From positions 2,720,001-2,784,000 of the forward strand of contig CAWELD010000003.1 in assembly GCA_963809895.1 (NCBI GenBank): a stretch of DNA of 64,000 nt, written 5' to 3'. Each line of letters begins with the position of its first letter. Positions within the stretch are counted from its first letter, which is position 1. Below the pieces are notes generated by a model that did no database searches, was not told the DNA's origin, and was given only the letters and a program-made list of their open reading frames with translations. Made by a program: the position numbers and the translations under genes. The DNA is from an uncultured Gemmatimonadales bacterium (GTDB lineage: Bacteria; Gemmatimonadota; Gemmatimonadetes; Longimicrobiales; Gaopeijiaceae). Positions 1,101 to 38,046 of this stretch are shown here, piece by piece.

Positions 1101-4100
1101 TCAACCCGGACCGATCCAGTCGGGGGCGAATGCGCCCTCGCGGAACTGGCGGAGGTCGGTGCCGTCCGCATTCACGATCCACAGGCCGCTCCACCGCGAA
1201 CCATCGGGATAGAGCTTGGACGCCCCGAACAGGAGTTGTGTGCCGTCGGGGGACCAGGTGGCGCCGACGTTGCCCGTCCAGATGTCGTTCATTCCCAGAT
1301 CGGCGGACACCACGGCGAGCGTGCCTCCTGCAGCGTCTGCGACCACGACATCCGTGAAGCCGTCGCCTCGCCGATGGAGGTAGGCGATGCGGAGGCCATC
1401 GGGCGAGAAGCGCGGACTGAGGGCATCGGGGAAGGCGGCGGTCAGACGCACCACGCCGCTCCCGTCGAACAGGTAGAGGTAGGGGCGATTCTCGCCCCGG
1501 TAGCTGTGGCCCGCGAAGACCAACTTGGTCCGGTCGCTGGACCAGTCGGTGCCGGTGAATCCCCCGATGGAGTCGGCGGCCAGAGGATCGAACAGCAGGG
1601 TGCGGGCGCCGGTGTCGATGTCGATGGCGAAGGGGAGCATGGGCTCGACGTCTGGCGAGTACAGGCCGAGGGTCAACTGCGACGGCCCCGGACCCCACGA
1701 GGGGTGATCCAGAACCAGCCCACTACCCGACTTGTCCTCCACCACCAATTGGCACGCCCCCGTGTCGGTGTCCCAGACCGCGATCCCTGCTTTCGCGTTG
1801 CACGTATTGACGGAATATCCGGCGTAGTGGGTGCCGTCCGGTGACCAGCGCGCCGCCGGGGAGCGACCCGGCACTCGAACAGGGTTGGTGCCGTCCGGGT
1901 TCATGACCCAGAGCCAGCGGTCCGCGTCGTGGTACAGGATGCGTCCCGGCCCAGCCCCGCAGTCGACGACGAGAGCCTCCGTGGTCGGCGTGGTGACCGA
2001 TCGCGGATTCATGCCCTGGAGCAGGCACTCTTCGGGCACGTCCAGCAGCTCCAGGGTGTGCTGACCCGCGCCGACCCCCGGGAAGGTGGTGCTGCCGCCC
2101 TGGGCCTGGACGGTGCGGATGTCGTTGCCGTCCAGCACGACCCGGTAGGTGGCCTGGCCACCGTTGTCGCCCCGGGTGTCGATGGTGACGTCCAGATCAC
2201 CACCCTGGCACGACAGGCTGAAGCTGGCCGTGCCGGTGCCGCCATCGGGCACCGACACCGTCATGGGATTGGGCGCCGCCACGCTGCACTCCGCCGGCAC
2301 GCTGGTGAGCTCCACGGTGCGGTCGCCGGCGTCCACCGTCAGCGACTGGCTGGCGTTGGCGTCGATTGGGCCCATGTCCTGGCCGTCCACCGAGAAGCTC
2401 AGCGTCGCACCCACCGGGAAGGGGCCCGAGGTGTTGGTGGTCACCTCGAGCTGGCCGCCGATGCAGGTCACCGCGAAGGCCACCGTGGTGGTCGAGTCGG
2501 CCACGATGTCGGTCTGCACCGGGTTGTCGCCGTTCACGCTGCAGTTCGGCTCCAGCGCCGCCAGCGCCACGCTGACCGCTCCCGGCGCCAACGCCGAGAA
2601 GGTGACCGAGCCGGTGGGATCGATGGCCTTGGACCGACTCGCCACCGTCACCTGGTAGCCATCGGGGTCGCCGGGGTCGCCCTGGCTCGACGTGCTTACC
2701 TCCAACGTGCCCGCCGTGCCCGCGCCTCCGCTCCCCTGGCACTCCACCTGGAAGGTCAGGGTGCTGAGCATCCCCACCTGGATGGTGGCGGTCTGCGGGT
2801 TCGCGCCCTGCACCGAGCAGTTGTCGGCGATGCCCCTGACGCTCACCTTCCGGCTTCCCAGCCGCACGCTCCGGAACGGGCGGGTGGCGTTGGTGCCGAT
2901 CGTGCCCTGCGCTGCGCCGTCCAGCTCCAGCTCGTAGCCGTTCGGGTCCAGGTCGCCGCCCGTGGTCTGGACCACTACGTCCAGGTCCCCGATGGGACAC
3001 TTCCACTGCGCCCCCTGCAGCGTGGCCAGCGTCTTGGTCTTCGAGTAGTCGCCACCCTTGGGCGTGAGGAAGTCCGCCAGGGAGATCCCGATCTTGGCGT
3101 CCAGACCTGCCGACGAGTCGAAGCCGCAATCGGTGCTGGACGCCGTCAGGCTGGCCTTCGCCCACGGCCCCAGCCCCACCAGGGGGCCGGCGATCCCGTA
3201 GAACTTCAGGTTCAGGTCCGGGGTCAGGCTCACCTTCGCGTCGAGGGTGATGGACACCACCGCCGTGCTGTCGCTGATGCTCGGCTGCTTGGGCGTGAAC
3301 GAGCCGTTGGCGTCCAGGACGCCCTGCCATCCCTGCGTTTCGTCCCAGCGCGCGCCCACGCTCACCGAGTGCGAGGTCTCGATCCCCGCCTGGAGCTTCC
3401 CCTTCAGCGTCGCGTTGGCCTCGAACTTCCCCTTCACCTCCATCTCGGCGTAGACGATGATCGGGACCGCCCCTACCTGGACGTAGACGATCCGCCCCAC
3501 TTCGAAGAGCGTCGCCTCGCGGGTCAGCGATGTGGACAGCTTCGCACCCAACGACACCGCCAGGTCCGTCTTGACGGTCCCGGTGGCGATCCCGTGAAAC
3601 TCCTTCAGCTCGTCGTTCTCACCCCAGGTGCTGCCGAAGTCCAGCGAGGGTGAGAAGCTGAAGCGCCCGTTGGGGATCTTGAACTCGTCGATGATGCTCG
3701 GGCACTTGTTCGCGGGGTCCTTCTCCTTGAAGTACTTGCAGATGTCGAACCCGCTGAAGTCCACGCCCAGCCCGCTGAGCGTCACCCCGGCGGGCAGCGG
3801 CGTCGTCCACAGCGGACCGTAGGCGATACGGACATCGCCCGATGCAGGCTCCAGCCAGGGCGCCGGACCGGCCGGGGCCGGGGCGGCTCCACCGCCCAGG
3901 CCGAAGAGGTCCACCGTGAAGCTCAGGTTGCCGGTGTCGATGAGATCGTCCAGCGTCGCCGGCTCCGTCTCCAGGGTGAGCTCGGCCCCCGCCACCGATG
4001 CCGCCGTCACCGTGCGCAGGAAGCCCAGACCCTGGGCACCCACGATGACGTCGCCCACAGCGATGGCCGGCGGATCGCCGCTCCCCAGATACTGGAACCG

Positions 4101-4568
4101 GTAGATTCCCCGGTCCAGCTCCAGTCGGTCGCTCAGGAGAGCCAGCTCGGTGGAGTCCACCACCATGGCGTTGCTCTCCAGCCGGAACGCCGTCACCGTG
4201 CCCGAGGCGCTGCCCGAACGGCTCGCGACCGTCGCCGTGATGGTCGCGGCCCCGCCCCCCGTCCCCGTGACCAGACCGTCGGAGGAGACCGCGGCGACCG
4301 ACTCGTCGCTGGACGACCACGCCAACGTCTGGCCCGTCATGGCCTGGCCGTTCTGGTCCCGCACGCTCGCCGCGAGCTGCACCGTCTCGCCGTAATCCAG
4401 CGCGAAGCTCGACGGCGACACGGTCACCGTCGTCACCCGAGGTGTCGGGTCCGGGTCGGGATCCGGGTCCGGACCCGTGGGTGGGCCCGACCCGTCTCCC
4501 CCGCAGCCCGCCAACACCAATCCCGCCAGCAAGACCTTCCATCGACCGGTCCGCATGCCGCGCTCCAT
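1101..4568 (-). CDS. Large surface lipoprotein: Ig-like (Big_2) domain, repeated Cys-paired beta modules, C-terminal TolB/PD40-like propeller
   Basis: Lipobox LAGC, PD-rich linker, VTTVTVSP...WSSSDESVAAVSSDGLVTG (Big_2), DPxGY-type repeats, WSPDG/FSPDG repeats at the C-terminus. Confidence 0.85.
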   Translation of the reverse strand: MERGMRTGRWKVLLAGLVLAGCGGDGSGPPTGPDPDPDPDPTPRVTTVTVSPSSFALDYGETVQLAASVRDQNGQAMTGQTLAWSSSDESVAAVSSDGLVTGTGGGAATITATVASRSGSASGTVTAFRLESNAMVVDSTELALLSDRLELDRGIYRFQYLGSGDPPAIAVGDVIVGAQGLGFLRTVTAASVAGAELTLETEPATLDDLIDTGNLSFTVDLFGLGGGAAPAPAGPAPWLEPASGDVRIAYGPLWTTPLPAGVTLSGLGVDFSGFDICKYFKEKDPANKCPSIIDEFKIPNGRFSFSPSLDFGSTWGENDELKEFHGIATGTVKTDLAVSLGAKLSTSLTREATLFEVGRIVYVQVGAVPIIVYAEMEVKGKFEANATLKGKLQAGIETSHSVSVGARWDETQGWQGVLDANGSFTPKQPSISDSTAVVSITLDAKVSLTPDLNLKFYGIAGPLVGLGPWAKASLTASSTDCGFDSSAGLDAKIGISLADFLTPKGGDYSKTKTLATLQGAQWKCPIGDLDVVVQTTGGDLDPNGYELELDGAAQGTIGTNATRPFRSVRLGSRKVSVRGIADNCSVQGANPQTATIQVGMLSTLTFQVECQGSGGAGTAGTLEVSTSSQGDPGDPDGYQVTVASRSKAIDPTGSVTFSALAPGAVSVALAALEPNCSVNGDNPVQTDIVADSTTTVAFAVTCIGGQLEVTTNTSGPFPVGATLSFSVDGQDMGPIDANASQSLTVDAGDRTVELTSVPAECSVAAPNPMTVSVPDGGTGTASFSLSCQGGDLDVTIDTRGDNGGQATYRVVLDGNDIRTVQAQGGSTTFPGVGAGQHTLELLDVPEECLLQGMNPRSVTTPTTEALVVDCGAGPGRILYHDADRWLWVMNPDGTNPVRVPGRSPAARWSPDGTHYAGYSVNTCNAKAGIAVWDTDTGACQLVVEDKSGSGLVLDHPSWGPGPSQLTLGLYSPDVEPMLPFAIDIDTGARTLLFDPLAADSIGGFTGTDWSSDRTKLVFAGHSYRGENRPYLYLFDGSGVVRLTAAFPDALSPRFSPDGLRIAYLHRRGDGFTDVVVADAAGGTLAVVSADLGMNDIWTGNVGATWSPDGTQLLFGASKLYPDGSRWSGLWIVNADGTDLRQFREGAFAPDWIGPG

Positions 4569-4733: not shown

Positions 4734-6159
4734 TCATCCCCACCAGGGCGAATCGGGAAGCACCACGGTCGGCCTCCGTCCGGCGCGTCGGCCGTCCAGG
4801 TGCAGGAGGAAGGTGCCGACACCGGCCGCCCCCTGCATGCGGCCGGTCTGCGCCGCCACCTCATCGGGCGACACCCGGTTCTCGGCCTGCACCCAGCGCC
4901 GGCCGCCGGCGTCCTCGGAGGACTGGTCCAGGAGCCAGCGGCCCACACGCTCGGCGTAGGCGCCGTGGCTGTCGTCGCCGGCGGCCTCTTCCAGCGCCAG
5001 GAAGAACTCGCCCACGCCGGCATCGCCGCAGCACTGGCTCACGTTGTTCCAGTAGCCCGGGGAGCGGCGCTCGGGCACGCCGTAGGCCTGGATCGCGGCG
5101 GCGCCCCGGGGAATCCACCCTCTCCACCGGGAATCCCCCGTCGCCCGCGCCAGCGCCTCGAAGAGCCGTGCCGTGCCGACGGGTCCGTGGCACCAGGACA
5201 GATAGTAGAGATCCTCGCCGCCCGGCTCGTGATGGAAGACCGCGCACCCGTCCTCGTCGCAGCGCCCCACGGCCTCGAGGTAGTGCGCGCCCCGCACCGC
5301 CGCCTCCAGTGGCTCGGCCTCGCCCGTGGCGGCGTGCAGCCGCGCCAGGAAGTAGGCCACACCGGCCGTGCCGTGCGAGAAGTTCGGATAGTTGCGGGGA
5401 TATCCGAGAGAGACCAGCCAGCGCAGCCCGCCCGGCGCCTCCTCGCCCAGACCCACCAGGCGACGTCCCGCACCCGCCGCCGCTTCGAGTGCGTCGGGAT
5501 GGTCCAGCGCGTCGTGGGCCCACAGGAGCGTCAGGCCGATGCCCGCGGCGCCCGAGATGATGTCCGACGACGCCTGATCGAGGCTGCCCGAGAGCCCACG
5601 CGAGGCCGCCCCGGTGCGGGCGGGCCGCCGCGACGACCCGGTCCGTGCAGCGCACGGCCCCTTCGCGGAAGCGCGCCTCGCCGCTGGCGCGATGCACCGC
5701 CTCCAGGCAGAAGGCGATTCCCGAGAGTCCGGTGTAGAGGCCCGCGTCCAGCGCCGGCGACGCATCGGTGCGCGCCAGCAGGTGGTCGGCTCCGGCCACG
5801 GCATCGGTCAGCGCCTCGGGACTCCCGGTAGCCGCGTGCACCTCCAGCAGGAAGAGCAGAACTCCTGGCGTCCCGTGATAGAGGCTCAGGTCCTCGTCCT
5901 CGCCGGCAGCGGGGACCACCGGCCAGGTCACGCCGGCGCTCGTTTCGCGCCGGTAGGCCCGGATCCAGCGATCCGCCGCCAGCGCGGCATCCAGAAACGG
6001 CCCCGCGGCGCGATGGCCATCGGCACCCACGCGTTCGAGTGCCGCCGCGCCGCCGGGCGCCAGCAGGAGCGCCGAGCCGGCGGCGGTCACGCGCAGGAAG
6101 TCACGGCGCGTGAGTCCCGGAGAACCCTCGATCAAGCACATGGGCGACCTCCCGATCAT
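4734..6159 (-). CDS. Tat-signal LanC-like (lanthionine synthetase C-like) protein; one frameshift near 5575-5600
   Basis: N-part in the frame of ORF 4861..6822 (TRRDFLRVTAAG, LYHGTPG, GLYTGLSGIA). C-part in ORF 4734..5804 (DIISGAAG, FSHGTAG, SWCHG, QCCGDAG, MQGAAG). ATG 6159 overlaps the stop of the M1 gene (ATGA). Confidence 0.85.
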
Positions 6160-7844
6160 GGAGCCGACCGGCTCTCCACGTAGAAGTTCGGGTCCACCTC
6201 GAAGTCGGACGGGTCGGAGAGTGACGTCTCGACGCGCTGCCACGCCTCGGTGGGGTGGATCCAATCGTACTCGCCCGGGGCCAGCGTGACCCGCACGGGC
6301 ATGGCGAACCCCGACACGACATCGGTCCACCGGTACTCCAGCGTGGACCCGTCGAAGCGGTATTCCAGCACCGGCACCATGGTGGTGCGCAGGTACTCGT
6401 CGAAGACCCCGCTCAGGTCCATGCCGGCGTGCTGGCTGATGTAGTCCTCGACCTGCGCGCTGGTGACGGTCTGGTGACGGAAGGTCGCGTTCAGCCCCCT
6501 GAGGATCCCCCGCCAGGCCTCGTCGTCGTCCACGAGCTGGCGGATGGTGTGCAGCATGTTGCCGCCCTTGTAGTACATGTCGCCGGAGCCTTCGTGGTTC
6601 ACCCCGTAGGTGCCGATGATGGGACGGTCGTTCCGGATCAGGGCCCGGGTGCCGATGACGTAGCGCGCGCCGGCCTCCTTGCTGCCCGTGAGACACTCGG
6701 TGTAGAGGTTCTCGGCGTAGTTGGCGAAGGACTCGTGGATCCACATGTCCGCTGCGTCCTTCATGCTGATGTTGTTGCCCCACCACTCGTGCGCGCTCTC
6801 GTGCACGATGATGAAGTCCCACTTCAGCCCCTCACCCGTCGACGACAGGTCCCGGCCGCGGTAGCCGTTCTGATAGCCGTTCCCGTACGCCACCGCGCTC
6901 TGATGCTCCATCCCCAGGTGCGGTGCCTCCAGGAGCTTGTAGCCGTCCGCGTACCAGGGGTACGGCCCGAACCAGTGCTCGAAGCAGGCGAGCATGGGCT
7001 TGACCTGGGCCCACTGCCGCTTGGCCGCGTCCAGATGGTAGGCCAGGGGCCAGAAGTCCAGCGTCAGGGTCCCGGCCTCGCCCTGGTATTCCTCGCTCCA
7101 GTGGGCGTAGGTGCCGGCGTTCACCGACACGCTGTAGTTGTTGATGGGCTCGGTGACGAACCACTCGTAGGTCGTGGTGCCGTCGCTGTTGGGCCGCGTG
7201 CTCCTGAGCCGCCCGTTGGAGACGTCCACCATGGGATCGGGCACCGTGATGGCGATGCGTTGACTGTCGGGCTCCTCCGAGCCGATGTCCTTGTCGGGCC
7301 ACCACACACTGGCCCCCAGGCCCTCGTTGGCGGTGGAGACCCAGGCGTTGCCCAGGCTGTCGGTCTGCCAGATGTAGCCGCCGTCCCAGGGCGGACGGAT
7401 CGCCACCACGGGCCGGCCGTGGTAGTGGACCGTCACGGTCTTCTCGGCCCCCACCGGCTGCGGCGCGGCCAGGGTGACGAAGAAGGCGTTGCCGTCACGC
7501 CGGTAGTCCAGGCGGGCCCCGTCCTGGACGATGCTGTCCACCTCCAGCGGCTCCTGCAGGTCGATCTGCATTTCCCGGGTGGGCCCGGTCACGCGGTAGG
7601 TGATCCCGTTCCAGCCGCGGATCGTGCTGTCCCCGGGCGACACGCGCACGTGGAGGTCGTAGAAGGTCACGTCCCACCAGGCCCGTCCGGGCCCGTTGGT
7701 ACCGCGGAGCGTGTCGGCATGGGTGAAGCCGCGCCCCTGCTGGGCGGCGAGGCCCGCCGGAGTCCCCAGGGCCGCGGCGCACGCCGCCGCCAGCCCCAAT
7801 GCGGCCAGGACCGTCCTCCTCCCCCTCGACCGGACCGGGCCCAC
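6156..7844 (-). CDS. Secreted M1 family zinc aminopeptidase
   Basis: Signal peptide, LGMEHQS (GAMEN-like), HESAHEWWGN...WIHESFANY (HExxH-x18-E), YYKG. Confidence 0.92.
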   Translation of the reverse strand: MGPVRSRGRRTVLAALGLAAACAAALGTPAGLAAQQGRGFTHADTLRGTNGPGRAWWDVTFYDLHVRVSPGDSTIRGWNGITYRVTGPTREMQIDLQEPLEVDSIVQDGARLDYRRDGNAFFVTLAAPQPVGAEKTVTVHYHGRPVVAIRPPWDGGYIWQTDSLGNAWVSTANEGLGASVWWPDKDIGSEEPDSQRIAITVPDPMVDVSNGRLRSTRPNSDGTTTYEWFVTEPINNYSVSVNAGTYAHWSEEYQGEAGTLTLDFWPLAYHLDAAKRQWAQVKPMLACFEHWFGPYPWYADGYKLLEAPHLGMEHQSAVAYGNGYQNGYRGRDLSSTGEGLKWDFIIVHESAHEWWGNNISMKDAADMWIHESFANYAENLYTECLTGSKEAGARYVIGTRALIRNDRPIIGTYGVNHEGSGDMYYKGGNMLHTIRQLVDDDEAWRGILRGLNATFRHQTVTSAQVEDYISQHAGMDLSGVFDEYLRTTMVPVLEYRFDGSTLEYRWTDVVSGFAMPVRVTLAPGEYDWIHPTEAWQRVETSLSDPSDFEVDPNFYVESRSAP

Positions 7845-7846
7845 GA

Positions 7847-9394
7847 TCAGTTCGCCGCCGTCACGGAGCCGCCCCCGTCCGACGTGCGCTGGATGAAGCC
7901 CGCGACCTCGGTCTTGAAGCGCGCCAGCGCCGGCTCGTAGAGGTACATCATGTGGCCCGCCTCGTACTCGACCCGCTCCACGTTGCCCCGGAGCTCGGGG
8001 GGAAGGCCCAGGTGGTCCATGGTGTAGTCGGCGGCGAAGTAGGGGGTGGCCAGGTCGTGGAGGCCGCTGTTGAGCATGACGTGCAACGTGGGATTCTGGC
8101 GCATGGCGCCAGCCAGATCGACCGCGACGTTGGTGTGACCCGGCCAGCCGCGCTGCTGACCGTGTTGCCAGTTCCAGGGATTCACGTTGCCGCTGATCCG
8201 GTAATCCCTCGTTCCCTCGTACCCCAGCTCGTCGCGCAGGTAGCGGTTCCAGGAGGACGCGTACGCCGAGCTCACCGACGCGCTCTGAGGGTCGAAGTCG
8301 GCCCGCTCGCCCACGCCGTCTTCGGTGAAGCCGGTGAAGCGAGCGTCGAGCCGGCCCAGCACGACCCCGGTTTCGCGCATGAGCTCCTTCTCGAACTGGC
8401 TGTTGTCCACCCGCAGGTCGGCGGCGTCCAGATAATCGACGCTGAGCCCCGTGTAGCGGTGGAGCTTCTGAAGCACCTCCTGCCGCGCCTGGCCCGTGAG
8501 CTTGTCGCCCTGGAGCAGGGCATCGGCGTATTCGGTCACGGCGAAGTGCTCCACCTCGTCCAGGAGCGGCTGCAGCTGGGCCGGCTGATCGGGGAGAGCG
8601 TGGTGATAGAACGCCACGGCCGTGTACGAGGGCAGGTACAGGAAGTACGGAATGTCGTTACCGGGGTTGAAGGTGATGGTCTGGAAGTCCAGCACCGCCG
8701 ACACCAGGATGATGCCGTTCAGGTCCACGTTGGAGCGGCCTTGCAGCACGGCTCCCAGCGCCGCGGAGCGGGTGGTTCCGTAGCTCTCTCCCAGCAGATA
8801 GCGTGGCGAGTTCCAGCGGTCGTTCTCGCTCAGGAAGCGGGTCACGAACTGGGCCAGCGACGAGGCGTCCTCGTCCACGCCCCAGAAGTCACGCCCCTCC
8901 GCGTCGCCCAGCGGACGGCTGAGCCCCGTGCCCACCGGATCGATCATCACCAGGTCGGTGACATCCAGGATGCTGTACTGGTTGTCCACCAGGTCGTAGG
9001 GCGGCGGCGGCACGTGCATGGTGTCGGGCGTGGCCACCCGCTTGGGACCCAACGCGCCCATGTGCAGCCACACCGACGAGGAGCCGGGCCCGCCGTTGTA
9101 GGCGAAGGTGAGCGGCCGGTGGTCCATGTCGGTCACCCCGCTCCGGGTGTACGCCGTGTAGTAGACCTCGGCGGTGGGCTTGCCGTCGTCGTCGCGCAGG
9201 ATGACGCTCCCCAGCGTGGCGTCGTATTCCACCGAGCGGCCGCCGATGCGGGCCGAGTGATGCGTGACGACATGCGTGGGCTGGACCTCGGCGGCCTCGC
9301 CGCGACCATCCGCCGTGGTCTGCTGGGCGAGGGCGGCGGGCGGTGCGACGAGGGCCGTCATCAGGAGCAAGCTTCCGGCAGGTGCGATTCTCAT
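7847..9394 (-). CDS. Secreted S10 family serine carboxypeptidase
   Basis: YNGGPGSSS, IDPVGTG, GESYG nucleophile motif, DLATP, YEAGHMMY; signal peptide from ATG 9394. Confidence 0.92.
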   Translation of the reverse strand: MRIAPAGSLLLMTALVAPPAALAQQTTADGRGEAAEVQPTHVVTHHSARIGGRSVEYDATLGSVILRDDDGKPTAEVYYTAYTRSGVTDMDHRPLTFAYNGGPGSSSVWLHMGALGPKRVATPDTMHVPPPPYDLVDNQYSILDVTDLVMIDPVGTGLSRPLGDAEGRDFWGVDEDASSLAQFVTRFLSENDRWNSPRYLLGESYGTTRSAALGAVLQGRSNVDLNGIILVSAVLDFQTITFNPGNDIPYFLYLPSYTAVAFYHHALPDQPAQLQPLLDEVEHFAVTEYADALLQGDKLTGQARQEVLQKLHRYTGLSVDYLDAADLRVDNSQFEKELMRETGVVLGRLDARFTGFTEDGVGERADFDPQSASVSSAYASSWNRYLRDELGYEGTRDYRISGNVNPWNWQHGQQRGWPGHTNVAVDLAGAMRQNPTLHVMLNSGLHDLATPYFAADYTMDHLGLPPELRGNVERVEYEAGHMMYLYEPALARFKTEVAGFIQRTSDGGGSVTAAN

Positions 9395-9549: not shown

Positions 9550-10185
9550 ATGCTCATGACCGTCGTCGCCGTCTCCGCCCAACTGGGCCTCTTCGCCGTA
9601 TGGCTGTTGACCCTGAACCTTCTGCTGGGCCTGCTGCTCTCCATGCGCTACAACCCACTCAAGCAGTGGCCCCACCGCCGCATCAACTACTTCACGGTCC
9701 ACAACTGGACGGGCTACATCGCGCTGGCGCTGTGCGTGGGCCACGTGGCCATCCTCCCGCTGTCCGACACCGCGGGGTGGGTGTGGAGAGACGTGATCTG
9801 GCCCTCGCAAGCGCCCCAGCAGCCGACCTTCAACGTGCTGGGTGCGCTGGGTCTCTACCTCCTGACGGTCGTGGTGGCCACCTCCTACCTCAGGCGGCGC
9901 ATGGGTCGCAAGAGCTGGAAGGCGATACACTACGCGGCCTACGCGTCGGCCCTTCTCTTCTATCTGCACGGCATCGTGCTGGACCCGAAGCTCCAGGATC
10001 GGCCGCTGAACCTCATCGACCCGGAGAAGCTCAGCCAGGTGATCTGCGTCGTCCTGGTGGTGTGGGTGACCTGGCTCCGGGTCCGGCACGCGCTCCGTCG
10101 GCGGGCCATCGGCCGCGCCAAGGACCAGAAGCGCTGGGACGCGCCGGATCCCAACGATTGGCAAGACGACGCTCAACCCGCCTGA
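9550..10185 (+). CDS. Ferric reductase-like transmembrane (MsrQ-like heme b) protein
   Basis: Several TM helices with spaced His (VHNW, GHVA, WKAIHY, YLHG) and TSYLRRRMG motif. Confidence 0.75.
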   Translation: MLMTVVAVSAQLGLFAVWLLTLNLLLGLLLSMRYNPLKQWPHRRINYFTVHNWTGYIALALCVGHVAILPLSDTAGWVWRDVIWPSQAPQQPTFNVLGALGLYLLTVVVATSYLRRRMGRKSWKAIHYAAYASALLFYLHGIVLDPKLQDRPLNLIDPEKLSQVICVVLVVWVTWLRVRHALRRRAIGRAKDQKRWDAPDPNDWQDDAQPA

Positions 10186-10188
10186 CAC

Positions 10189-11523
10189 ATGCTGCCATCC
10201 ACCACGCTCGCGTCTGCCCTCGGCCTCGCCGCCCTCCTCGCCACGACCGCACCCGCGTCGTTGCGCGCGCAACAGGGCCTCTCCCGTGAAGAGCAGGCGG
10301 TGGTCGCCGCGGTCGACGCCCGGGCCGACGCGGCCATCACCCTGTTGACGCGCGTCGTGAACATCAACAGCGGAACCATGAACTTCGACGGGGTGCGCCG
10401 GGTCGGCGACTTCTTCCGCGCCCAGCTGGACAGCCTCGGCTTCGAGACCGAGTGGCTCGACGGTGCGGCCTTCGAACGGGCCGGCCACCTGGTGGCGCGC
10501 CACGTCGGCAACGGATCGGGGCCCCACCTGCTGCTCATCGGGCACCTCGACACGGTGTTCGAGCCCGACAGCCCCTTCCAGACCTTCGAGACGGGCCCGG
10601 ATTCCAGCGCCACCGGCCCCGGCGTCGTCGACATGAAGGGCGGCGACGTGGTCATCGTCGAGGCGCTGCGCGCCCTGGAGGCCGCAGATCTCCTGGACGC
10701 CCTGACCATCACCGTGGTCATGACCGGCGACGAGGAGCGGAGCGGCAGTCCGCTGAGCCTGGCGCGGGCGGCGCTTCTGGAAGCCGGCGAGGCCGCGGAC
10801 ATCGCATTGGCCTTCGAGAACGGCGACAGCAACCCGAAGACGGCGGTGGTGGCTCGCCGGGGATCCACCGGCTGGCGGCTCGACGTCACCGGCACACCGG
10901 CGCATTCCTCGCAGCTCTTCCAGCCCGAGGTGGGGTCCGGCGCCGTGTACGAGGCCGCCCGCGTCCTGTCGGGCTTCTACGAGGAGCTGGCGGGCGAGCC
11001 GTATCTGACCTTCAACCCAGGCGTCGTGCTGGGGGGGACGTCGGTGGACTACGACGCTTTCCAGAGCGGGGGATCGGCGTTCGGCAAGAGCAACGTGGTG
11101 GCGGAGCACGCCGTGGTGACCGGCGACCTGCGCACCCTGTCGCTGGAGCAACTGAGCACCGCGCGGGCCAAGATGGCCTTCGTCGCCCGCCAGAGCCTAC
11201 CCGGGACCTCGTCGGAGCTCACCTTCGACGACGGCTATCCGCCCATGGCGCCCACGGCCGGCAATCAACGCCTTCTGGCCATCTTCGATCAGGTGAGTCG
11301 CGACACGGGCTACGGCCCGGTGACGGCGGTGGATCCCAGGAACGCGGGCGCCGCCGACGTCTCCTTCGTGGCGGGCCTCGTGGACATGGCCATCGACGGT
11401 CTGGGCCCCGGCGGGGGAAACGACCACACGGTGGACGAGTGGATCGACCTTCCCACCCTGCGGGAACAGACGCGCCGAGCCGCGGTCCTCATCGCTAGAC
11501 TCGGTCGCGGGATCGTTCCGTAG
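10189..11523 (+). CDS. Secreted M20 family metallopeptidase (carboxypeptidase G2-like)
   Basis: IGHLDTVF, GPGVVDMKGG, GDEE, DGLG..G..DHT; signal peptide. Confidence 0.9.
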   Translation: MLPSTTLASALGLAALLATTAPASLRAQQGLSREEQAVVAAVDARADAAITLLTRVVNINSGTMNFDGVRRVGDFFRAQLDSLGFETEWLDGAAFERAGHLVARHVGNGSGPHLLLIGHLDTVFEPDSPFQTFETGPDSSATGPGVVDMKGGDVVIVEALRALEAADLLDALTITVVMTGDEERSGSPLSLARAALLEAGEAADIALAFENGDSNPKTAVVARRGSTGWRLDVTGTPAHSSQLFQPEVGSGAVYEAARVLSGFYEELAGEPYLTFNPGVVLGGTSVDYDAFQSGGSAFGKSNVVAEHAVVTGDLRTLSLEQLSTARAKMAFVARQSLPGTSSELTFDDGYPPMAPTAGNQRLLAIFDQVSRDTGYGPVTAVDPRNAGAADVSFVAGLVDMAIDGLGPGGGNDHTVDEWIDLPTLREQTRRAAVLIARLGRGIVP

Positions 11524-12151: not shown

Positions 12152-14840
12152 CTACAGCCCGCCGTCCTGCATGTCGGTGGTGATCCTCGCATCGGTATCG
12201 GGAGCCTGGAGGTAGACCTCCAGCCACGCCGTCCACCGCGCCCACAGGTCCAGGAGCGTCTCCTTCGTGGCCGGGCCGTGATCCTCGTAGGGATAGAGGT
12301 ACATGGCCGCGTCCTTGCCCAGGCCGTTGAGGGCGTGGAACATGCGGGGCGTGTGGTCCGGATCCGTGCCCACGTTCTGATCGCCCAGCCCGTGGTACAT
12401 GAGCAACGCACCCGTGAGCTCGTTGGCGTACAGGAAGGGTGACATGCGCAGGTACACGTCCCGGGCATCCCACAGGATGCGGCGCTCGTTCTGGAACGAG
12501 AGGGGCGTGAAGGTCCGGTTGTAGTTGCCGTCGCCGGCGATGCCCGCCTTGAAGAAGGGCGTGTGGACCATGGCGTTCGCCGTGCTGAAGGCGCCGTAGG
12601 AGTGCCCACCGATGCCGAGCCGCTGGCGGTCGATGAGGCCCCGCTCGTCCAGCTCGTCGATGACGGCGGCCAGGTTGTTGCGCAGGTCGTGCTCGTAGTT
12701 GTTGTTCATCTGGCCCGCCTTGCCCACGATGGGCGCGTCGGGCTCGACCACGGCGTAGCCCAGCCGCACGAGATACTCCATGCTGCGGGTGCCGAAGCTC
12801 GGGAACGAGTTCTTGTTGAAGGTGCGCGCGCCCTCGTCGTAGTCCTCCTGGCCCTCGTACTCACGAGGGTAGAACCAGAACATGGCCGGCAGACGCGTGC
12901 CCTCGCGGTAGTCCGGAGGCAGCGTCACGGTGACGCGGAAGCGGAAGCCGTCGGGCCGCTCCACCACGAACCGCTCCACGCGCGCTGCGGTGAGATCGGG
13001 CGTGTAGTCCACGTTCTGCGTGAGCTGCGTGCGGGTGCCCCCGTCCAGGCGGTAGGACTGCTCCACCTCGGTGGGACTCTCGTGGGTCAGGACGAACGAA
13101 CGGGCGTCGATGTCCAGGATCGCGGTGAGGCGCTCGTAGACGCCGTCGTTGTCGGCTTCGAAGATGCGCTCCTTGTCGCCGGTCTGGATGTTCACCTGAT
13201 CCAGGAAGGGCCTCGGACCCGTCGCCATGGGATCCTCGTCGTACGCGGTTCCGGCGAGGTAGACGCTCTGTCCGTCGGCCGAGAGCTGCACCGTGCTGGC
13301 CTCGCCTCCGCCTCCCCCGAAGAAGCGGAACCGGCCACCGCCCGGGACGCTCCCGTCGGTCATGACCAGGCTGCCCGGGTTCGCGTAGAAGTCGTCGGAG
13401 TCGTAGCGCGCCAGCGTGTGCCGGGTGTCCGGATCAGCCAGGGAGACGGCGTATTGATGCACGCGCGTGCCCTGCCGCTCGCTCAGGAACAGCATCTGCA
13501 TGTCCGGCGAGAAGTTGTGGCTGGTCATGCGGGTGTCGCTCTCGTAGACCACGTTCAGGCTGGTGCTGTCGAAGGGCGGCAGCCACTGCATGACGCGGTC
13601 CTTGCGGCGCGAACGGGCCTGGCCGCCCTCCTGTCCGGCGGCTCCCCGGTCTGCTGGAGCGTCCGCCCCAGCGCTGTCCGGGGCGGGCTCCTGCTGCAGG
13701 AACGTCAGACCCTGCCCGTCGGGACGCCACGCGAGCTGCCGGCGTCCGCTGTCGTTGCCGTTCCGGGCCGAGCCCTGATCGTCGTCCCGGATCCCGGTGT
13801 TCAACTCGGTGGTGTCCAGGACCGCCAACACGCTTCCCTGAGCATCCCAGATCTCCTCGACCCGCCCGAAGCTGCTCACGGGAACGAGATAGCTGAAGGG
13901 CTTGATCATGCGGGTCACCCGCACGTAGCGGCCGTCGGGAGAGAAGTCGAAATCCCGGACCATGGTGGGGGCGCCAACCTGGTGCACCCGGCGCCCGTCC
14001 AGCTCGACGTAGGCGAGCTGACCCGTGACGTCCCACTCCAGCAGCGCCTCGTCGTAGGGTGTGGCCATCAGGCTGGCGTAGGTACGCAGCATGTTGTCGC
14101 CGTCTTCGGTCATCTTGACCTGCGGCCCCGTGGGAGCCGACGGGCTTCGCCGGCATGGCCGGACGGTTCTCCGGCACGAGCACGACACCGATGGCCTTCC
14201 CGTCGGCGGTCCACTGGAAGCCGGTGGCCAGCGTGGCCAGGACCGGGCGCCGGGTGAGTTGGCGCGAACGTCCCGTCGCCGGGTCCGCCACGAAGATGTG
14301 CGTGGCGTCGTCGAAGTGGGCGTAGAAGGCGATCTGGGACCCGTCGGGCGACCACTCCGCGTCGGACACCCGAGCTCCGTCGGGGACCGACACGCGCACC
14401 TTGGACCCGTCGGCGGCGGAGATCACCTCGATCCCCACGTTGTTCCGGATCGTCAACGTGCGGCTCCGATTCGCCTTGAAGTCCACGAACAGCCCGCCCA
14501 GCTCGTGGAACGGCTTCGAGAAGACGTCCATGGTCACCGGTCCGTCACCCACCTCGTTGAGGAAGCGGGTCCGATCGGGACTCACGTCGCTGAGTGTGAC
14601 GTTCAGGTACCGGGGCGCCAGCACCGCCTCGGTGATGGCGGACGGTGGCTGCACGTACTGCTTGGCGGCCAGGATCTCGCGGGCGTCCCAGCCGTTGTCC
14701 TGCTGGGCCACGACGGGCTGCGCGAACGACGGCAGCACCGCGAGAAGAAGGAGCGTGACAGACCAGCGGGCTCGTGCGAGGCCGCGCCGCTCAGGGCGAA
14801 CGATCATACCCGCCTCCGGGTGGAAGTCGAGGAGGTCCAT
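12152..14840 (-). CDS. Secreted S9 (prolyl oligopeptidase family) peptidase; one frameshift near 14140
   Basis: N-part in ORF 13434..14840 (signal, WSPDG propeller). C-part in ORF 12152..14188 (GGHSYGAF, HGLGDQN, YPYEDHG). Start may be 14807. Confidence 0.88.
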
Positions 14841-23910: not shown

Positions 23911-23976
23911 CCTGTCCGGCGGGTCTTGCGGCATACTCAGGGGCGTTCGCTCCCCTTCCCTCTTCCATGCCCGCCC

Positions 23977-24447
23977 GTGACGCCCAAGCGCTCCCCATCC
24001 GCACGCTCCAGCAAGCTCGTCCTCGTGGGATGGCGCGAATGGGTGGCGCTGCCCGACCTGGGGATCCCCCGGATCAAGGCGAAGATCGACACGGGGGCCC
24101 GATCCTCGTCGCTCCACGCCTACGACATCCGGCGCTTTCGCAGGAAAGGGCGCTCCATGGTGCGCTTCCGGGTGCATCCGATCCAGAAGAACACCCGGAC
24201 CACGGTAGAGGCCGAGGCGGAGCTCTTCGACCAGCGCAAGGTCCGCAGCTCGTCGGGTCAGGAGTCGCTACGCTGGGTGATCGTCACCGAGCTGGACGTC
24301 GGCGGACGGCGCCATCCCATCGAGATCACGCTGACCCGACGTGACGCCATGGGCTTCCGCATGCTGCTGGGCCGCCAGGCGCTTCGTCGGCGCTTCATGG
24401 TGGATCCGGGAGCCTCCTTCCTCGCCTCCTCCCCTCCCTCCCCATGA
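23977..24447 (+). CDS. RimK-associated retropepsin-like protease (RimB-like, annotated as ATP-dependent Zn protease)
   Basis: [30 protein letters not shown]...MGFRMLLGR; start approximate. Confidence 0.88.
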
Positions 24448-25406
24448 GAATCGGCATCCTCTCGCGCCGGGAATCGCTCTACTCCACCGGCAGACTCCGC
24501 GACGCAGCAGTCGAGCGCGGACACGAGGTTCGCATCGTCAACCCGCTGCGCTGCTACATGAACATCTCGGCCAAGCAGCCGAGGGTCATGTACCGGGGCG
24601 CGGAGCTGCACTTCGACGCCATCATCCCGCGCATCGGCGCCTCCATCACCTTCTACGGCATGGCTGTGGCCCGGCAGTTCGAGATGATGGGTGTCTTCTC
24701 CGTCGCCGAATCCCAGGCCATCGCCCGCTCCCGGGACAAGCTGCGTTCGCTGCAGCTCTTGTCGCGCGAGGGCATCGGCCTGCCGGTCACGGGATTCGCC
24801 CGCTCGCCCCGCGACGTCGCCGGGATCATCGGGCTGGTGGGCGGTGCGCCGCTGATCATCAAGCTCCTGGAAGGGACCCAGGGCAAGGGCGTGGTGCTCG
24901 CGGAGACCGGCAAGGCGGCCGAGTCGGTCATCGGCGCCTTCCAGCAGCTCGACGCCAACATCCTGGTCCAGGAGTACATCAAGGAGGCCAGCGGCTCCGA
25001 CCTGCGGGCGTTGGTCGTGGGCGGGCGCGTGGTGGCGTCCATGGAGCGGCATGCGGCTCCGGGGGAGTTCCGCTCCAACCTCCACCTCGGGGGGAGCGCC
25101 GACCCGGTCAAGCTGACCCCCAAGGAGCGCAACACCGCCATCCGCGCCGCCCGCATCCTGGGGCTCACCGTAGCCGGAGTGGACATGCTGCGCTCGAAGC
25201 GCGGGCCCGTGGTCATGGAGGTGAACTCGTCTCCCGGGCTGGAGGGCATCGAGACCGCCACCGGCGTGGACGTAGCCGGTGAGATCATCGAGTACATCGA
25301 AAGCCACGCAGCCCTGGGAGACGAGCACGAGCACGCGGCCCCCGACGGCCGCAAACGCCGCCCTCGGAGGCGCGGCGCGGCGAAGAGCGATGACGCCGAA
25401 GAGTGA
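24444..25406 (+). CDS. rimK: RimK family alpha-L-glutamate ligase
   Basis: [63 protein letters not shown]. Confidence 0.95.
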
Positions 25407-26388
25407 CCTCGCCCCGGCGGCGCTCACCGTGGGCGACACCACGGTGGACCCGGGCACCAGGACCCGGATCGACCTGCCGGTGGCCCGCCTCACCACGGGC
25501 GCGTGGCTCCATCTTCCCGTCGAGGTGATCCACGGCGCACGGCCGGGCCCCACCATCTGGATGAGCGGTGCCGTCCACGGCGACGAGTTGGACGGCGTCG
25601 AGATCATCCGTCGCGTGCTCGAGAACGTGCGCACCCACGCCCTGGCCGGAACCGTGCTGGCCGTGCCCGTCGTCAACGTGTTCGGCGTCGTGGCCGAGAC
25701 CCGCTACCTGCCGGACCGCCGCGACCTGAACCGGTCGTTTCCCGGCTCGCAGCGCGGATCCATGGCTGCCCGCCTCGCGCATCTGTTCATGAAGGAGGTC
25801 GTGGCCCGCTGCTCGGTGGGATTGGATTTCCACTGTGGCTCCGACGATCGGGACAACCTCCCGCAGGTCCGCTGCGACCTCACCGACGACCAGACGCGCG
25901 CCCTCGCCCTGGCCTTCGGAGCTCCGGTGAGCATCCACGGCCGGCCCCCCGACGGAGCGTTGCGCAAGGCCGCGTCCAAGGCCGGGGCTCGGGTGATCCT
26001 CTACGAAGGCGGCGAGGCGCGCCGATTCACCGAGTCGGCCATCAGCACGGGGGTCGCCGGAACGCTGAGGGTGCTGCAGGCGCTGGGTATGCTGCCCGCC
26101 TCCGATGCCGACGACGCTCCCGCGACGGTGGAGGTGTACCGGACCCACTGGGTGCGCGCGGGCCGGAGCGGCATCCTGCGCCTGGACGTGGGGCTGGGCG
26201 AGGAGGTGGCCCGGGGACGCCGGCTCGGCGTCATCGCCGACACCTTCGGCGACGAAGGGCGACCCGTGCGGGCCCGCACCGCCGGTATCGTGGTGGGTCG
26301 GCGCATCAATCCCCTCGTCTATCAGGGTGAAGCCGTGGTGCACGTTGCGGAGCCCTCGGGGCAAGCGCCCGAAGGCGAGGCGCCGTGA
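25390..26388 (+). CDS. Succinylglutamate desuccinylase/aspartoacylase (AstE/AspA, M14-like) protein
   Basis: [28 protein letters not shown]-terminal lipoyl-like domain. Confidence 0.92.
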
Positions 26389-34778: not shown

Positions 34779-35537
34779 ATGTCTGTGCAGGTGTCGATGG
34801 ACGGCGCCGTGGCGCGCCTGACCCTCCACGACCCTCCCCTGAACATCCTGACCCGTAAGACCCTGGTCCGCATCCGGGACCACGTGGGCCGCCTGGCCCG
34901 GGAGTCCGGTGTCCGCGCGCTCATCGTAGGGGCCGACGGCGAGAACTTCTCCGCCGGCGCCTCGGTCCAGGAGCACCTTCCCCCGGACCACGAGACGCTC
35001 ATCCCCGAGTTCACCGCCACGATCCAGGCCGTGCGCGACTTCCCGCTGCCCGTTGTGGCCGCGGTGCGCGGGCGTTGTCTGGGGGGAGGCTTCGAGCTGA
35101 TCCTGGCCGCCGACATGGTGGTGGCCGGCGAGGCGGCCGTCTTCGGCGTGCCGGAGATCCGTCTGGGCGTCTTCCCCCCCGCGGCGTGCGCCCTGCTTCC
35201 CGGCCGCATCCCCGCGGGGATGGCCGCCGAGCTGCTCTTCACCGGAGGGACCGTGGACGCGGCCAGCGCGGTCCGGGCCGGCCTGGTCCACCAGGTCGTC
35301 CCCACGGACCGGGTGGACGCCACCGCCATCGAGCTCGCGCGCCGCGTGGCCCGGAACAGCGGGGCGGCGCTCCGGGCCGCCAAGGCGGCGCTACGCGCGG
35401 CTGAAGGTGGCAGCATCGACGCCGCGCTCGGGCAGGCGGAAGCCATCTACCTCACCGACCTCATGAACACGCACGACGCCCTCGAAGGCCTCCACGCCTT
35501 CGTGGAAAAGCGCCGGCCCCAATGGAGCGACCGATGA
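34779..35537 (+). CDS. dch: Cyclohexa-1,5-diene-1-carbonyl-CoA hydratase (crotonase family)
   Basis: PPLNIL, FSAGASVQEH, VRGRCLGGGFEL, PEIRLGVFPP, YLTDLMNTHDALEGL; position next to bcrC. Confidence 0.85.
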   Translation: MSVQVSMDGAVARLTLHDPPLNILTRKTLVRIRDHVGRLARESGVRALIVGADGENFSAGASVQEHLPPDHETLIPEFTATIQAVRDFPLPVVAAVRGRCLGGGFELILAADMVVAGEAAVFGVPEIRLGVFPPAACALLPGRIPAGMAAELLFTGGTVDAASAVRAGLVHQVVPTDRVDATAIELARRVARNSGAALRAAKAALRAAEGGSIDAALGQAEAIYLTDLMNTHDALEGLHAFVEKRRPQWSDR

Positions 35538-36703
35538 CCGTGACCGAGCTGTTCCCCTCGTGGCGAGGCCACTCCCTGGACGGTCTGCTGGCCGCCTGCC
35601 GCGAGCTCCTGGAGGACACGGATTTTCCCACGGTGCGTCGCTGGCGAGACGACGGCGGCAAGGTCGTGGGTCACTTCCAGGTCTACTTCCCGGAAGAGAT
35701 CGTACATGCCGCCGGCCTGCTCCCCTTCAGGGTGCGCGGCGCGCCGGTGGAGCCGCTGCAGTCCGACTCCCGCTTCGGCTCGTACCTCTGTTCCATCATC
35801 AAGACCTCGCTGGAGCTGGCCCTGAGCAACCGGGTGCGCCTCGATCTGTTCGTGACGCATCCCATCTGCGACGCGGCCCGCAACCTGGCCGGAGTCTGGG
35901 GCCGCAACGCCGACTACCGCTGCGAGATCCTCTATCTGCCACAGCACGCCACGTCGGTCCACGCCCCCGACTATCTGAAGGGCGAGTACGCGCGGCTTCT
36001 GGCCGAGGTCGAGGAGCTCGCCGGCCACCGGGTCGGCGACGAGAGCCTGCGAGCGTCCATCGAGGTCTACAACGAGAACCGGGCCCTCCTCCGCGAGCTC
36101 TACGTCATCAAGCGCGAGACCCCGTGGCTGATCGCGGCGGACGAGGCCTACGTGCTCACGGCCATCGGGGGGCTCCTGCTCCGGGAGGAGCACAACGAGA
36201 TCCTGCGGACCGTGCTGCCCATGGTGCGCGAGCGCCAGACGCGCAAGCTGGACCGCATCCGCGTGGTCATGGAGGGCGGGTTCTGCGAGCAGCCGCCGCT
36301 GGATCTGATCCGCGCCGTCGCCCGCTCCTGCTACGTGGTGGACGACGACCTGCTCATCGGTCTGCGCTGGATCCTCGACGACGTGCCCACCGACGGGGAC
36401 CCCCTGCTCGCTCTGGCCCGGGCCTACCTGGACCAGAGCAGCTACAGCCCGGTGCAGCACGACGATCGCAAGCCGAAGGAGGAGATGCTCATGGCGCGGA
36501 TCCGCGAGGCCCGCGCCGATGCGGCCATCGTCACCGCCGCCAAGATGTGCGAGCCGGGGCTGGAGGAGCAGGTCACGTACACGCGCCGTCTGGACAAGGC
36601 GAACGTGCCCTACTTCGTCAGCGAGTTCGAAGAGAACATGACCAGCTTCGACCACCTGGAGATCCAGCTCGAGACGTTCGTCGAGAACCTGATGTTCGAT
36701 TAG
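35534..36703 (+). CDS. bcrC: Class I benzoyl-CoA reductase subunit C
   Basis: PEEIVHAAG, SYLCS, PICD..RNL, SIEVYNENR, FCEQPPL, CYVVDDD, KMCEP; collinear with Thauera BcrC as recalled. Confidence 0.9.
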   Translation: MTVTELFPSWRGHSLDGLLAACRELLEDTDFPTVRRWRDDGGKVVGHFQVYFPEEIVHAAGLLPFRVRGAPVEPLQSDSRFGSYLCSIIKTSLELALSNRVRLDLFVTHPICDAARNLAGVWGRNADYRCEILYLPQHATSVHAPDYLKGEYARLLAEVEELAGHRVGDESLRASIEVYNENRALLRELYVIKRETPWLIAADEAYVLTAIGGLLLREEHNEILRTVLPMVRERQTRKLDRIRVVMEGGFCEQPPLDLIRAVARSCYVVDDDLLIGLRWILDDVPTDGDPLLALARAYLDQSSYSPVQHDDRKPKEEMLMARIREARADAAIVTAAKMCEPGLEEQVTYTRRLDKANVPYFVSEFEENMTSFDHLEIQLETFVENLMFD

Positions 36704-36725
36704 CGACCTGCCTGAGGAGACGACC

Positions 36726-38036
36726 ATGGTGGATCGAGGAGCCACCGCGAGCCCGGTGGGCCGCGGCAACAAGGAAGGTGCCCGCCTCTTCAGCGACTGG
36801 TTCGCGGATCTGACGCGGGCCGCCGAAGAAGGGCGGGGAGCCGCCTACGTGTTCGTCATGGGGAGCCTGGCGGAGCTGCTGCGTTGCTTCGACCTCCCCG
36901 TGGTCTTCCCGGAGATCAACTCTCTGCAGACCGCCGTGCGGCACGTGGCCCACGAGTATCTGAACGAGGCCGAGGACTACGGCTACTCGCCGGACATCTG
37001 CGGCTACGTGAAGGCCGACGTGGCAACGCAGCTCCGGGGAGGCACGCTCCCCATGGGCCGCGTTCCGAAGCCCGCGCTCGCCGTCTACACCAACGCGTGC
37101 AACACCTACATCAAGTGGGCCGAGATCTGGGAGCGCATGTACGAGGTGCCCACCATCACCATCGACGTGCCGGGCACCCGCGCGGCCGGCGACGCCATGG
37201 GCGCCGCCGATCCCGCCTGGGACAACGACCTGCGCTACGTGCTGGGACAGCTCCGCGAGCTGATCCCGGTGCTGGAGGAGCGCAGCGGCGTGGCCTTCGA
37301 CATCGACCGCCTGCGCGAGACGCTGGGGCACGCCAACACCATGAGCCGCGGGTGGAAGCGCGTGCTGGAGCTGAACCAGTCACGCCCGGCCCTCTTCAAC
37401 GCCCTCACCGACGGCACCATCTATCTGGGAGTCTCCAACTGTCTCAGGGGGACGCCCGAGGGCGCGGCCTACTTCGACGACCTCGTCGAGGAGATGGAGT
37501 ACAAGCGAGCCCACGGCATCGGCACGCTCACCGAAGAGGAGCACCGGCTGACGTTCGTCGGGGTGCCCTGCTATCCGATCTTCCGGCGCTTCGGCGAGCT
37601 CTTCAGCGAGTGGGGCGGCACCTTCGTCACCTCCACCTACCTGCAGTTCGCGTCCGGAGGCGCCAACGACGGCTTCCAGTACGACCTGGAGCGACCGCTG
37701 GAGTCCCTGGCGGAAGGACTGCTGCGCGGGGTGCGCTCGGCCATGGACAGCATGTTCTTCCAGACCGACGCCCTGCTGAAGATGGTGGACGACTTCGACG
37801 TGGACGGCATCGTCTATCATCCCATCAAGAGCTGCCGCACGGTGTCCACGGGCCTGGCGGACAACCGCCGGGCCGTCATGGAGCGCCGCGACGTCCCGAG
37901 CCTCTTCATCGAGTCGGACATGATGGATCGGCGCGTGGTGTCCGAAGCCCAGCTCAAGAACCGCATCGACGCCTTCTTCGAGGGCCTGGCCGCACGCAAG
38001 CAGCAAGCGGCCGCGTCGGGCGGCCCTCTCGCATAA
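36726..38036 (+). CDS. bcrB: Class I benzoyl-CoA reductase subunit B
   Basis: [51 protein letters not shown]. Confidence 0.9.
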
Positions 38037-38046
38037 GGAGACCCTC

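Follow-up and report, generated by a model that had tools for sequence, protein, structure and literature searches.

To our knowledge, every LanC-type enzyme characterised so far is cytoplasmic and makes carbon–sulfur bonds. Stand-alone, thiol-alkylating ancestors have been proposed for LanL (PMC2843593), and the literature that we searched, whose coverage was incomplete, did not describe any bacterial LanC family that is exported or partnerless. Here we analyse a stretch of 64,000 nucleotides (the window) from contig CAWELD010000003.1 of an uncultured Gemmatimonadales bacterium, in which a LanC-like gene of about 468 aa, counted from ATG 6141 (4734..6141, minus strand), follows genes for an S10 serine carboxypeptidase-like protein and an M1 aminopeptidase. 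A sequence-only reading of this DNA had proposed that the three form one exported system for digesting lanthipeptides or cross-linked peptides. Our results demonstrate that the exported enzyme family is real and large, and that the claimed three-gene system is not conserved. With neither dehydratase nor glutathione partners, a large exported family of this kind must act otherwise than the characterised LanC enzymes.

A predicted exported LanC-fold enzyme and its family

The LanC-like gene matched the LANC_like profile in two segments (E 1.4e-8 and 1.1e-20), separated by one frameshift. Its read-through translation scored 110.8 bits against a curated cut-off of 23.2, and P0007, an intact 466-aa homologue that is 62% identical to it over 97% of its length, scored 109.8. 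A structure model made of P0007 (pLDDT 91.6, 14 core helices) forms an alpha,alpha-toroid of seven hairpins, and all of the eight best structural matches to it are of LanC type (Z 28.4–38.1), including CuvL (38.1), GCR2 (36.4), MadC (36.1) and NisC (35.2), in agreement with Foldseek. Many family members give weak Pfam hits to GH127, GH76 or GH88. The comparison with GH127 yielded only short, weak stretches of PF07944, with no GH127 chain among the structural matches listed, and the best glycosidase match reached Z 23.7. Membership of the glycosidases or epimerases was not supported, the structural scores clearly separating the model from both.

The known catalytic residues are in place, and fold and motifs together bear out the sequence-only reading in its claim of a stand-alone, exported LanC-fold enzyme with intact catalytic machinery; the motifs that it named (TRRDFL, FSHG, WCHG and CCG) are all present on the minus strand. 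Motif counts refer to 274 family sequences of at least 380 aa, not dereplicated. The DIISG motif (5550..5564) holds an Asp that is invariant (D191 in 56 aligned sequences) and aligns with the Asp of NisC DVIEG (2g02), which, on our own numbering, we take to be Asp141 of the Asp–His dyad. FSHG (5370..5381) contains the catalytic acid/base His, equivalent to LanCL1 His219 and NisC His212, and SHG occurs in 272/274 sequences. WCHG (5184..5195; 273/274) provides the first Zn ligand, a Cys, and the equivalent of His277, while CCG (5025..5033; CC in 268/274) provides the second and third ligands, the His of CHG being a Cys here. When aligned to LanCL2 and NisC, the family likewise shows equivalents of LanCL1 His219, Cys276, His277 and Cys322, with a Cys replacing His323. 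A CCG zinc site is stated for ProcM-like enzymes in PMC12328550, and from the aligned residues we infer that the LanC-like protein binds zinc. The earlier assignment of WCHG and CCG as zinc ligands thus stands for the Cys of WCHG, but the counterpart of its His is LanCL1 His277, a residue in contact with the enolate oxygen (PMC9934072). The positions of LanCL1 His274 and Glu374 are occupied by Ser/Gly and Gln (in the alignment, the Glu374 equivalence being taken from its repeat position). Invariant residues of the family's own are H301, E418, R420, Q429, T430 and Q434, and a family-specific segment, AE[NH]R ... QTGxMQG (4830..4886; AE[NH]R in 264/274, QTG..QG in 271/274), is likely to line a pocket for a thiol-bearing partner, judging from its conservation.

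The protein is small and predicted to be soluble, and intact homologues are many. Its N-terminus is a predicted Tat signal peptide (6040..6141, minus strand) with TRRDFL at 6094-6111, a hydrophobic stretch and AAA; TatC is encoded in the host genome, and the TAT_signal profile matched P0007 at E 6.6e-4, below its curated cut-off. Across the family, signals were scored by a simple sequence heuristic, and localisation is a prediction. An export signal was found in 225 of the 274 sequences (175 twin-arginine, 50 Sec-like; 8 none, 8 truncated, 33 unscorable) and, counted per independent context, in 48 of 52 (27 twin-arginine, 21 Sec-like; 2 none, 2 truncated). The TRR motif is conserved in the Gemmatimonadota branch, and the Sec-type rows of the tree cluster in one subclade. 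Because this large subclade uses Sec-type signals, export and not the Tat route appears to be the conserved trait; the Tat export claimed earlier therefore fits the protein at hand but does not define the family, some of whose distant relatives have no signal at all. A Cys pair in a beta-hairpin was considered as a sign of periplasmic disulfides and was not counted: both residues were present in 75 sequences, the first only in 1, the second only in 76 and neither in 84, and per independent context the distribution was 5/0/24/21 (p 0.066).

A word-index search returned 2632 proteins at E 1e-10 or better among the best 8000 candidates scored, and relatives are encoded in at least 568/599 genome stretches and at least 552/599 metagenome stretches. 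The family is spread over Gemmatimonadota, Acidobacteriota, Planctomycetota, Aminicenantes and a small number of further groups, and the nearest homologues among the matches listed are labelled Gemmatimonadota, probably the phylum of the host too. Occurrence within the host phylum is patchy (12/151 genomes). In a quick maximum-likelihood tree with long-branched references, 42 family rows stand apart from class I LanC and from the LanM and LanL/LanKC domains (SH-aLRT 99). Cultured Streptomyces, Mesobacillus and Nonomuraea carry stand-alone relatives without a signal (L238-L241), which belong to the same wider clade (support 99, FastTree). The Streptomyces relatives keep all motifs and the Mesobacillus and Nonomuraea copies have lost the FSHG His; no lanB was found among the annotated neighbours in three annotated records, the Nonomuraea record being unannotated there.

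Degenerate copies also occur. A genome of the same genus, G015, encodes one (L027:8379-9848) in which SHG and WCHG are lost while the twin-arginine signal, CCG and a lipobox-like Cys remain, and at L171:8539-9888 a motif-less copy lies directly upstream of an intact one. It is possible that these copies are binding proteins. P0134-P0138 form a separate group of 950-1125-aa proteins outside the family clade, with a LanC-like domain and, in some, YfiO/TPR lipoprotein domains.

Comparison of the locus with public assemblies from 4 of the 18 listed runs (all contigs) bears on the reading frame and on the start codon. The gene lies in two frames near 5593, where it has one extra base relative to a relative's contig, and both halves match PF05147. 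Because that contig (588 nt, ~93% identical, 43 differences) lacks the extra base and restores the frame, and because frame breaks also showed in 5 of a further 70 genes that were probed with homologues in this assembly, the frameshift is probably an assembly error; no near-identical contig among those listed covers base 5593. The LanC-like gene is unlikely to be a pseudogene, and the real and fixed frameshift that the sequence-only reading had named as fatal to its proposal does not agree with the relative's contig. An exported S9 peptidase gene at 12152-14840 (minus strand) also seems split over two frames, probably by a further assembly frameshift.

The start codon is most likely ATG 6141, since the base at 6147 is missing in two near-identical contigs (3 and 1 differences; two studies), which puts ATG 6159 out of frame, since a GGAGG ribosome-binding site (6148..6152, minus strand) lies 6 nt upstream of ATG 6141, and since this start yields an M-C-x(n)-RR N-terminus, as in many homologues. 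The ATGA-coupled start at 6159 was rejected on the same three grounds. The overlap with the M1 gene that had been reported is thus replaced by a gap that is probably 14 bp, and ATG 6159 is probably unused.

Biosynthetic partners and gene neighbourhoods

Neither LanB, LanM and LanKC/L domains nor a convincing LanA were found in the window, and a scan of its first 15 kb for LanA-like open reading frames (ORFs) gave 11 short Cys/Ser/Thr-rich frames, all intragenic or with poor coding scores. The earlier statement that the window lacks lanthipeptide partners holds to this extent; as to an exporter, MacB/FtsX permeases and an ABC ATPase are present in the window, none of them linked to the LanC-like gene as far as tested. 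Profiles detected no LanB or LanM N-domain in the host genome (95% complete), where the controls were blank and the LanB model was positive in other genomes, and tblastn with LanB, LanM and LanKC probes gave no match in the host genome or in 162 related loci of up to 21 kb each. We also surveyed 50 of the 80 genomes behind these loci, which are incomplete genomes of unstated completeness. A LanB N-domain occurred in 5 of the 50; 42 had exactly one LanC-domain match and one more had two family copies; and 41 had neither LanB nor another LanC-domain gene, so that the independence from lanthipeptide dehydratases suggested by the window extends to most carriers. The glutathione synthetase N-domain (GSH-S_N, GshB) was found in 2 of 35 genomes, the host not among them, and in three control genomes. 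Because LanB and GshB are missing from most carrier genomes, the enzyme appears to belong neither to the class I cyclases nor to the LanCL proteins of glutathione type.

These results bear directly on a biosynthetic role, in which a post-export cyclase would introduce thioether cross-links into a secreted peptide or an envelope protein, with an unrecognised enzyme encoded elsewhere supplying the dehydro residue. The full cyclase active site, the class IV synthetase CuvL as nearest structure and the CCG site shared with the substrate-tolerant ProcM (PMC12328550) would all suit such a role. We nevertheless regard it as very unlikely, given the blank dehydratase probes, the rarity of LanB among the carriers and the lack of a conserved small-peptide neighbour in 67 contexts, in which ORFs <70 aa were uncalled in the related loci.

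The scarcity of glutathione synthetase likewise weakens the possibility that the enzyme detoxifies or repairs, adding small thiols (cysteine, sulfide or others) to dehydroalanine (Dha) or dehydrobutyrine (Dhb) in antibiotics or damaged envelope proteins, as LanCL does with glutathione. Addition is the favoured, physiological direction of all characterised LanC and LanCL enzymes (PMC9934072), the His of WCHG matches eukaryotic LanCL and ProcM and not class I LanC, and a single-copy gene of patchy occurrence fits an accessory defence function. Set against this, 33 of the 35 genomes are without glutathione synthetase, the LanCL1 His274 and Glu374 positions differ, free thiols are generally scarce in an oxidising periplasm, and no resistance or thiol-export neighbour recurs consistently across the contexts. 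We consider thiol addition somewhat unlikely.

The host genome (5.3 Mb, 11 contigs) encodes this one LanC domain and, besides the S10 protein of the window, three further S10 paralogues. Profile searches and coordinates confirm the order S10, M1, LanC-like on the minus strand, the genes lying head to tail with 2 bp between the first two. The S10 gene (7847..9394, 515 aa; Peptidase_S10 E 6.6e-12) keeps its catalytic motifs GESYG/NSGLHD/GHMMY and has a Sec-type signal by inspection, and the M1 gene (6156..7844, 562 aa; Peptidase_M1 E 2.4e-14) keeps GMEH and HEXXH-18-E and has a signal peptide, likewise by inspection; all three proteins thus have the signal-like N-termini that had been noted earlier. 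Since both near-identical contigs, from two studies, bridge the M1-LanC junction, the layout is real in this species.

It is conceivable that such an arrangement represents one dedicated, conserved three-enzyme module, as the 2-bp and 14-bp spacing, the common strand, the export signals, the bridged junction and the lack of a terminator-like site between the three genes might suggest. A wider scan for promoters and terminators gave nothing above chance, and one RNA run contained 5% of the sequence words. The related loci make this highly improbable. The window M1 was matched in 1 of the 162, on the opposite strand, and the window S10 in 12, all in one Longimicrobiales synteny block and on the opposite strand, 4-8 kb away; in none of the 162 was either co-directional with the LanC-like gene. 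Of 60 relatives, 23 have M1 orthologues, at 24 loci with flanks of up to 1.5 kb, and none of the 24 loci had an S10 or LanC-like gene within about 1.5 kb. In the same-genus genome G012, the M1 genes and the LanC-like gene lie on different contigs. A conserved S10-M1-LanC operon was therefore rejected, 0/162 and 0/24 loci repeating either link in this orientation, and the trio is a local arrangement. The peptidase linkage that the sequence-only reading had expected of the homologues is absent as far as this M1 and this S10 are concerned, and its three-gene system is unsupported.

The 160 loci with a called gene were grouped into 67 contexts (2 loci without one were dropped), and Pfam was run on clusters covering 1284 of 1573 called genes. 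The largest context, in Blastocatellia (L044, L129, L131, L136 and related loci), comprises prkA-DUF444-spoVR, an S1/P1-nuclease-like gene, the LanC-like gene, an FAD monooxygenase and an MFS transporter. Two contexts and L231 have a group II PLP-dependent decarboxylase directly downstream, often with a 4-bp overlap (L066, L071, L076, L081, L083, L084, L086, L089, L091, L101, L105, L173 and L231). At L049:11322-14342, the LanC-like gene, an M19 dipeptidase and both L-serine dehydratase subunits are co-directional, a layout that fits amino-acid catabolism.

Proposed direction and substrate of the reaction

Thia-Michael chemistry is to be expected by default of a protein that retains all LanC catalytic residues, and because there is an export signal but no dehydratase and no glutathione, the substrate is most likely external. 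The reading that we favour, at somewhat less than even confidence and from sequence comparison, is that the protein is an exported Zn-thiolate C-S lyase of LanC fold in the periplasm or outside the cell, acting by a retro-Michael reaction on scavenged thioether peptides. The thioether sulfur would bind the Cys3-Zn site, the Asp-assisted His of FSHG would take the alpha proton and the His of WCHG would steady the enolate; opening of the bridge would leave a dehydro residue and a free thiol. Periplasmic thiol oxidation, and hydrolysis of the dehydro-peptide by many exported peptidases, could pull the equilibrium toward opening. The enzyme would then serve general peptide and sulfur scavenging, from lanthionine rings and cysteine-electrophile adducts, with no dedicated S10-M1 module. 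We infer the localisation, the direction and the substrate alike. LanC and LanCL catalyse the retro reaction in vitro (PMC9993889), and this reaction requires the same His (PMC9993889, PMC9934072).

A looser link to other exported peptidases (M19, S12 and M55) is weakly to moderately supported by the neighbourhoods. Peptidases occupied 13 of 114 adjacent positions compared with 20 of 351 positions at 2-6 genes (p 0.036), and for co-directional genes the counts were 11/73 and 10/188 (p 0.012). M19 was adjacent in 3/114 positions, where 0.10 were expected (156 M19 matches in 35 genomes), and S12 in 6/114, where 0.62 were expected (121 S12 matches in 5 genomes). One context, L106 from the unpublished genome G101, contributes the M16 adjacency, four distal counts, one tree row and one genome to these analyses. 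Peptides that contain dehydro- or D-amino acids are common substrates of M19, M55 and S12 enzymes. The M19 neighbours belong to different subfamilies and, because they are only 22-45% identical between contexts, they seem to have been separately recruited. Longer forms of the protein also bear on function: 13 were found, and the 10 that were scanned with Pfam had no kinase or DUF4135 domain. In the clean-looking fusions, the partner of the LanC-like domain is a secreted esterase, a pectate lyase, a fucosidase-like domain, an HZS_alpha protein or a TPR protein, and all fusion clusters but one have a single member. Those to secreted catabolic domains (esterase, pectate lyase, fucosidase-like) were counted in favour of the lyase. 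Two further candidates, M20-LanC (P0126) and amidohydrolase-LanC (P0130), were rejected as read-through artefacts with an off-frame-looking middle and an internal twin-arginine signal.

Several observations count against a lyase. Thiol addition to dehydroalanine is thermodynamically favoured, so the equilibrium favours addition unless the product is removed. The peptidase enrichment fades when adjacent positions are compared with those at 4-6 genes (13/114 and 16/177, p 0.32), a co-directional adjacent peptidase is present in only 10 of 65 contexts, and the M19 and S12 families were picked post hoc, after the maps had been viewed. The largest context (26 loci), with its PrkA/DUF444/SpoVR block, has no peptide theme, and 43 of 138 distant representatives are without a signal peptide by the heuristic, some of them mis-called. 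In the in vitro work, a thiol trap was needed to drive removal (PMC9993889).

Other chemistry is equally compatible with the fusions to carbohydrate-active domains. The LanC scaffold may have been recruited to a different extracellular reaction, such as peptide epimerisation, or an elimination or thiol transfer whose substrate is a small molecule or glycan, and the family-specific invariants, the pectate lyase, esterase and fucosidase-like fusions, the weak GH127/GH76/GH88 hits and the recurrent M19, M55 and S12 neighbours, which are often enzymes of D-amino-acid peptides, would all be in keeping with this. The retention of all known LanC catalytic residues, the clear distance of the structural scores from glycosidases and epimerases, and the near absence of fusion clusters with more than one member make such a recruitment unlikely.

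If the favoured lyase reaction does take place, the family may represent the first catabolic, exported LanC branch, a suggestion that we hold as possible but tentative: a periplasmic thioether lyase with which abundant bacteria of soil, sediment and sponges open lanthionine rings and other cysteine thioether cross-links, and so use lanthipeptides and cross-linked proteins as food or disarm them, within a wider dehydratase-independent clade that includes cytoplasmic Streptomyces members. Opening of thioether rings would explain the natural recycling of protease-resistant lanthipeptides and lanthionine cross-links, would suggest a way in which environmental bacteria inactivate lantibiotics, and could offer a leader-independent biocatalyst to open or close thioether peptides. 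Family proteins carry automatic names such as 'lantibiotic modifying enzyme' and 'LanC family protein', and in genome mining, genes bearing the first of these names are likely miscounted as lanthipeptide clusters.

Other genes of the window and comparison with known systems

The gene at 1101-4568 (minus strand), 165 bp downstream of the LanC-like gene and co-directional with it, encodes a lipoprotein of 1155 aa that combines an Ig-like domain and repeated beta domains with a PD40 propeller at its C-terminus; it had no match in the 162 related loci. Genes for a ferric-reductase-like membrane protein and for an exported M20 peptidase (9556-11523, plus strand) are divergent from the S10 gene; counting S9, there are at least four exported peptidases in 10 kb of the window. 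An ATP-dependent zinc protease-like gene, RimK and AstE/AspA lie in a row at 23926-26385 (plus strand), ahead of an amino-acid permease. Two HGD-D subunits and a BadF/BadG ATPase at 35522-38862 (plus strand), of the 2-hydroxyacyl-CoA dehydratase or benzoyl-CoA reductase type, suggest anaerobic amino-acid or aromatic metabolism.

Among the closest known proteins are the 'lanthionine synthetase LanC family proteins' of the wider clade (for example WP_326844315.1, WP_330358817.1 and WP_121614317.1), which share 32-36% identity and the CCG site with the family. Unlike the family, these Streptomyces, Mesobacillus and Nonomuraea proteins have no signal peptide, and they are known by automatic annotation only.

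Like the class I cyclases (NisC 2g0d, MadC 8byk), the LanC-like protein stands alone, with seven helical hairpins, seven GxxG motifs, Z scores of 35-36 and an aligned Asp and His of the dyad. In contrast to them, it has no LanB/LanA/LanT cluster, is predicted to be exported, shares only 13-14% identity, and has WCHG and CCG where they have WCYG and CHG.

The eukaryotic proteins LanCL1/LanCL2 (8czk, 6wq1) and plant GCR2 (3t33) are similarly stand-alone and without a dehydratase tie. The equivalents of His219, Cys276, His277 and Cys322 are shared with LanCL, whose chemistry is reversible in vitro (PMC9993889). The family differs in having Cys and not His as its third Zn ligand, in several glutathione-contact positions, in being predicted as exported and not cytosolic, and in its hosts, which are mostly without GshB.

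Structurally, the best match is the class IV LanL CuvL (8car; Z 38.1, rmsd 3.3 A over 358 residues, 24% identity), and the Zn ligands and catalytic His of the LanL/LanM cyclase domains (LicM2 6st5, CylM 5dzt) are kept. The CCG site is shared with ProcM (PMC12328550). P0007 scored 123.7, 86.8 and 138.9 with the NCBIfam models for LanM, LanKC and LanL, against cut-offs of 304, 575 and 650. Unlike LanM, LanKC and LanL, which have N-terminal dehydratase or lyase and kinase domains, the family has no lyase, kinase or dehydratase domain and no precursor; it carries an export signal and forms a separate clade.

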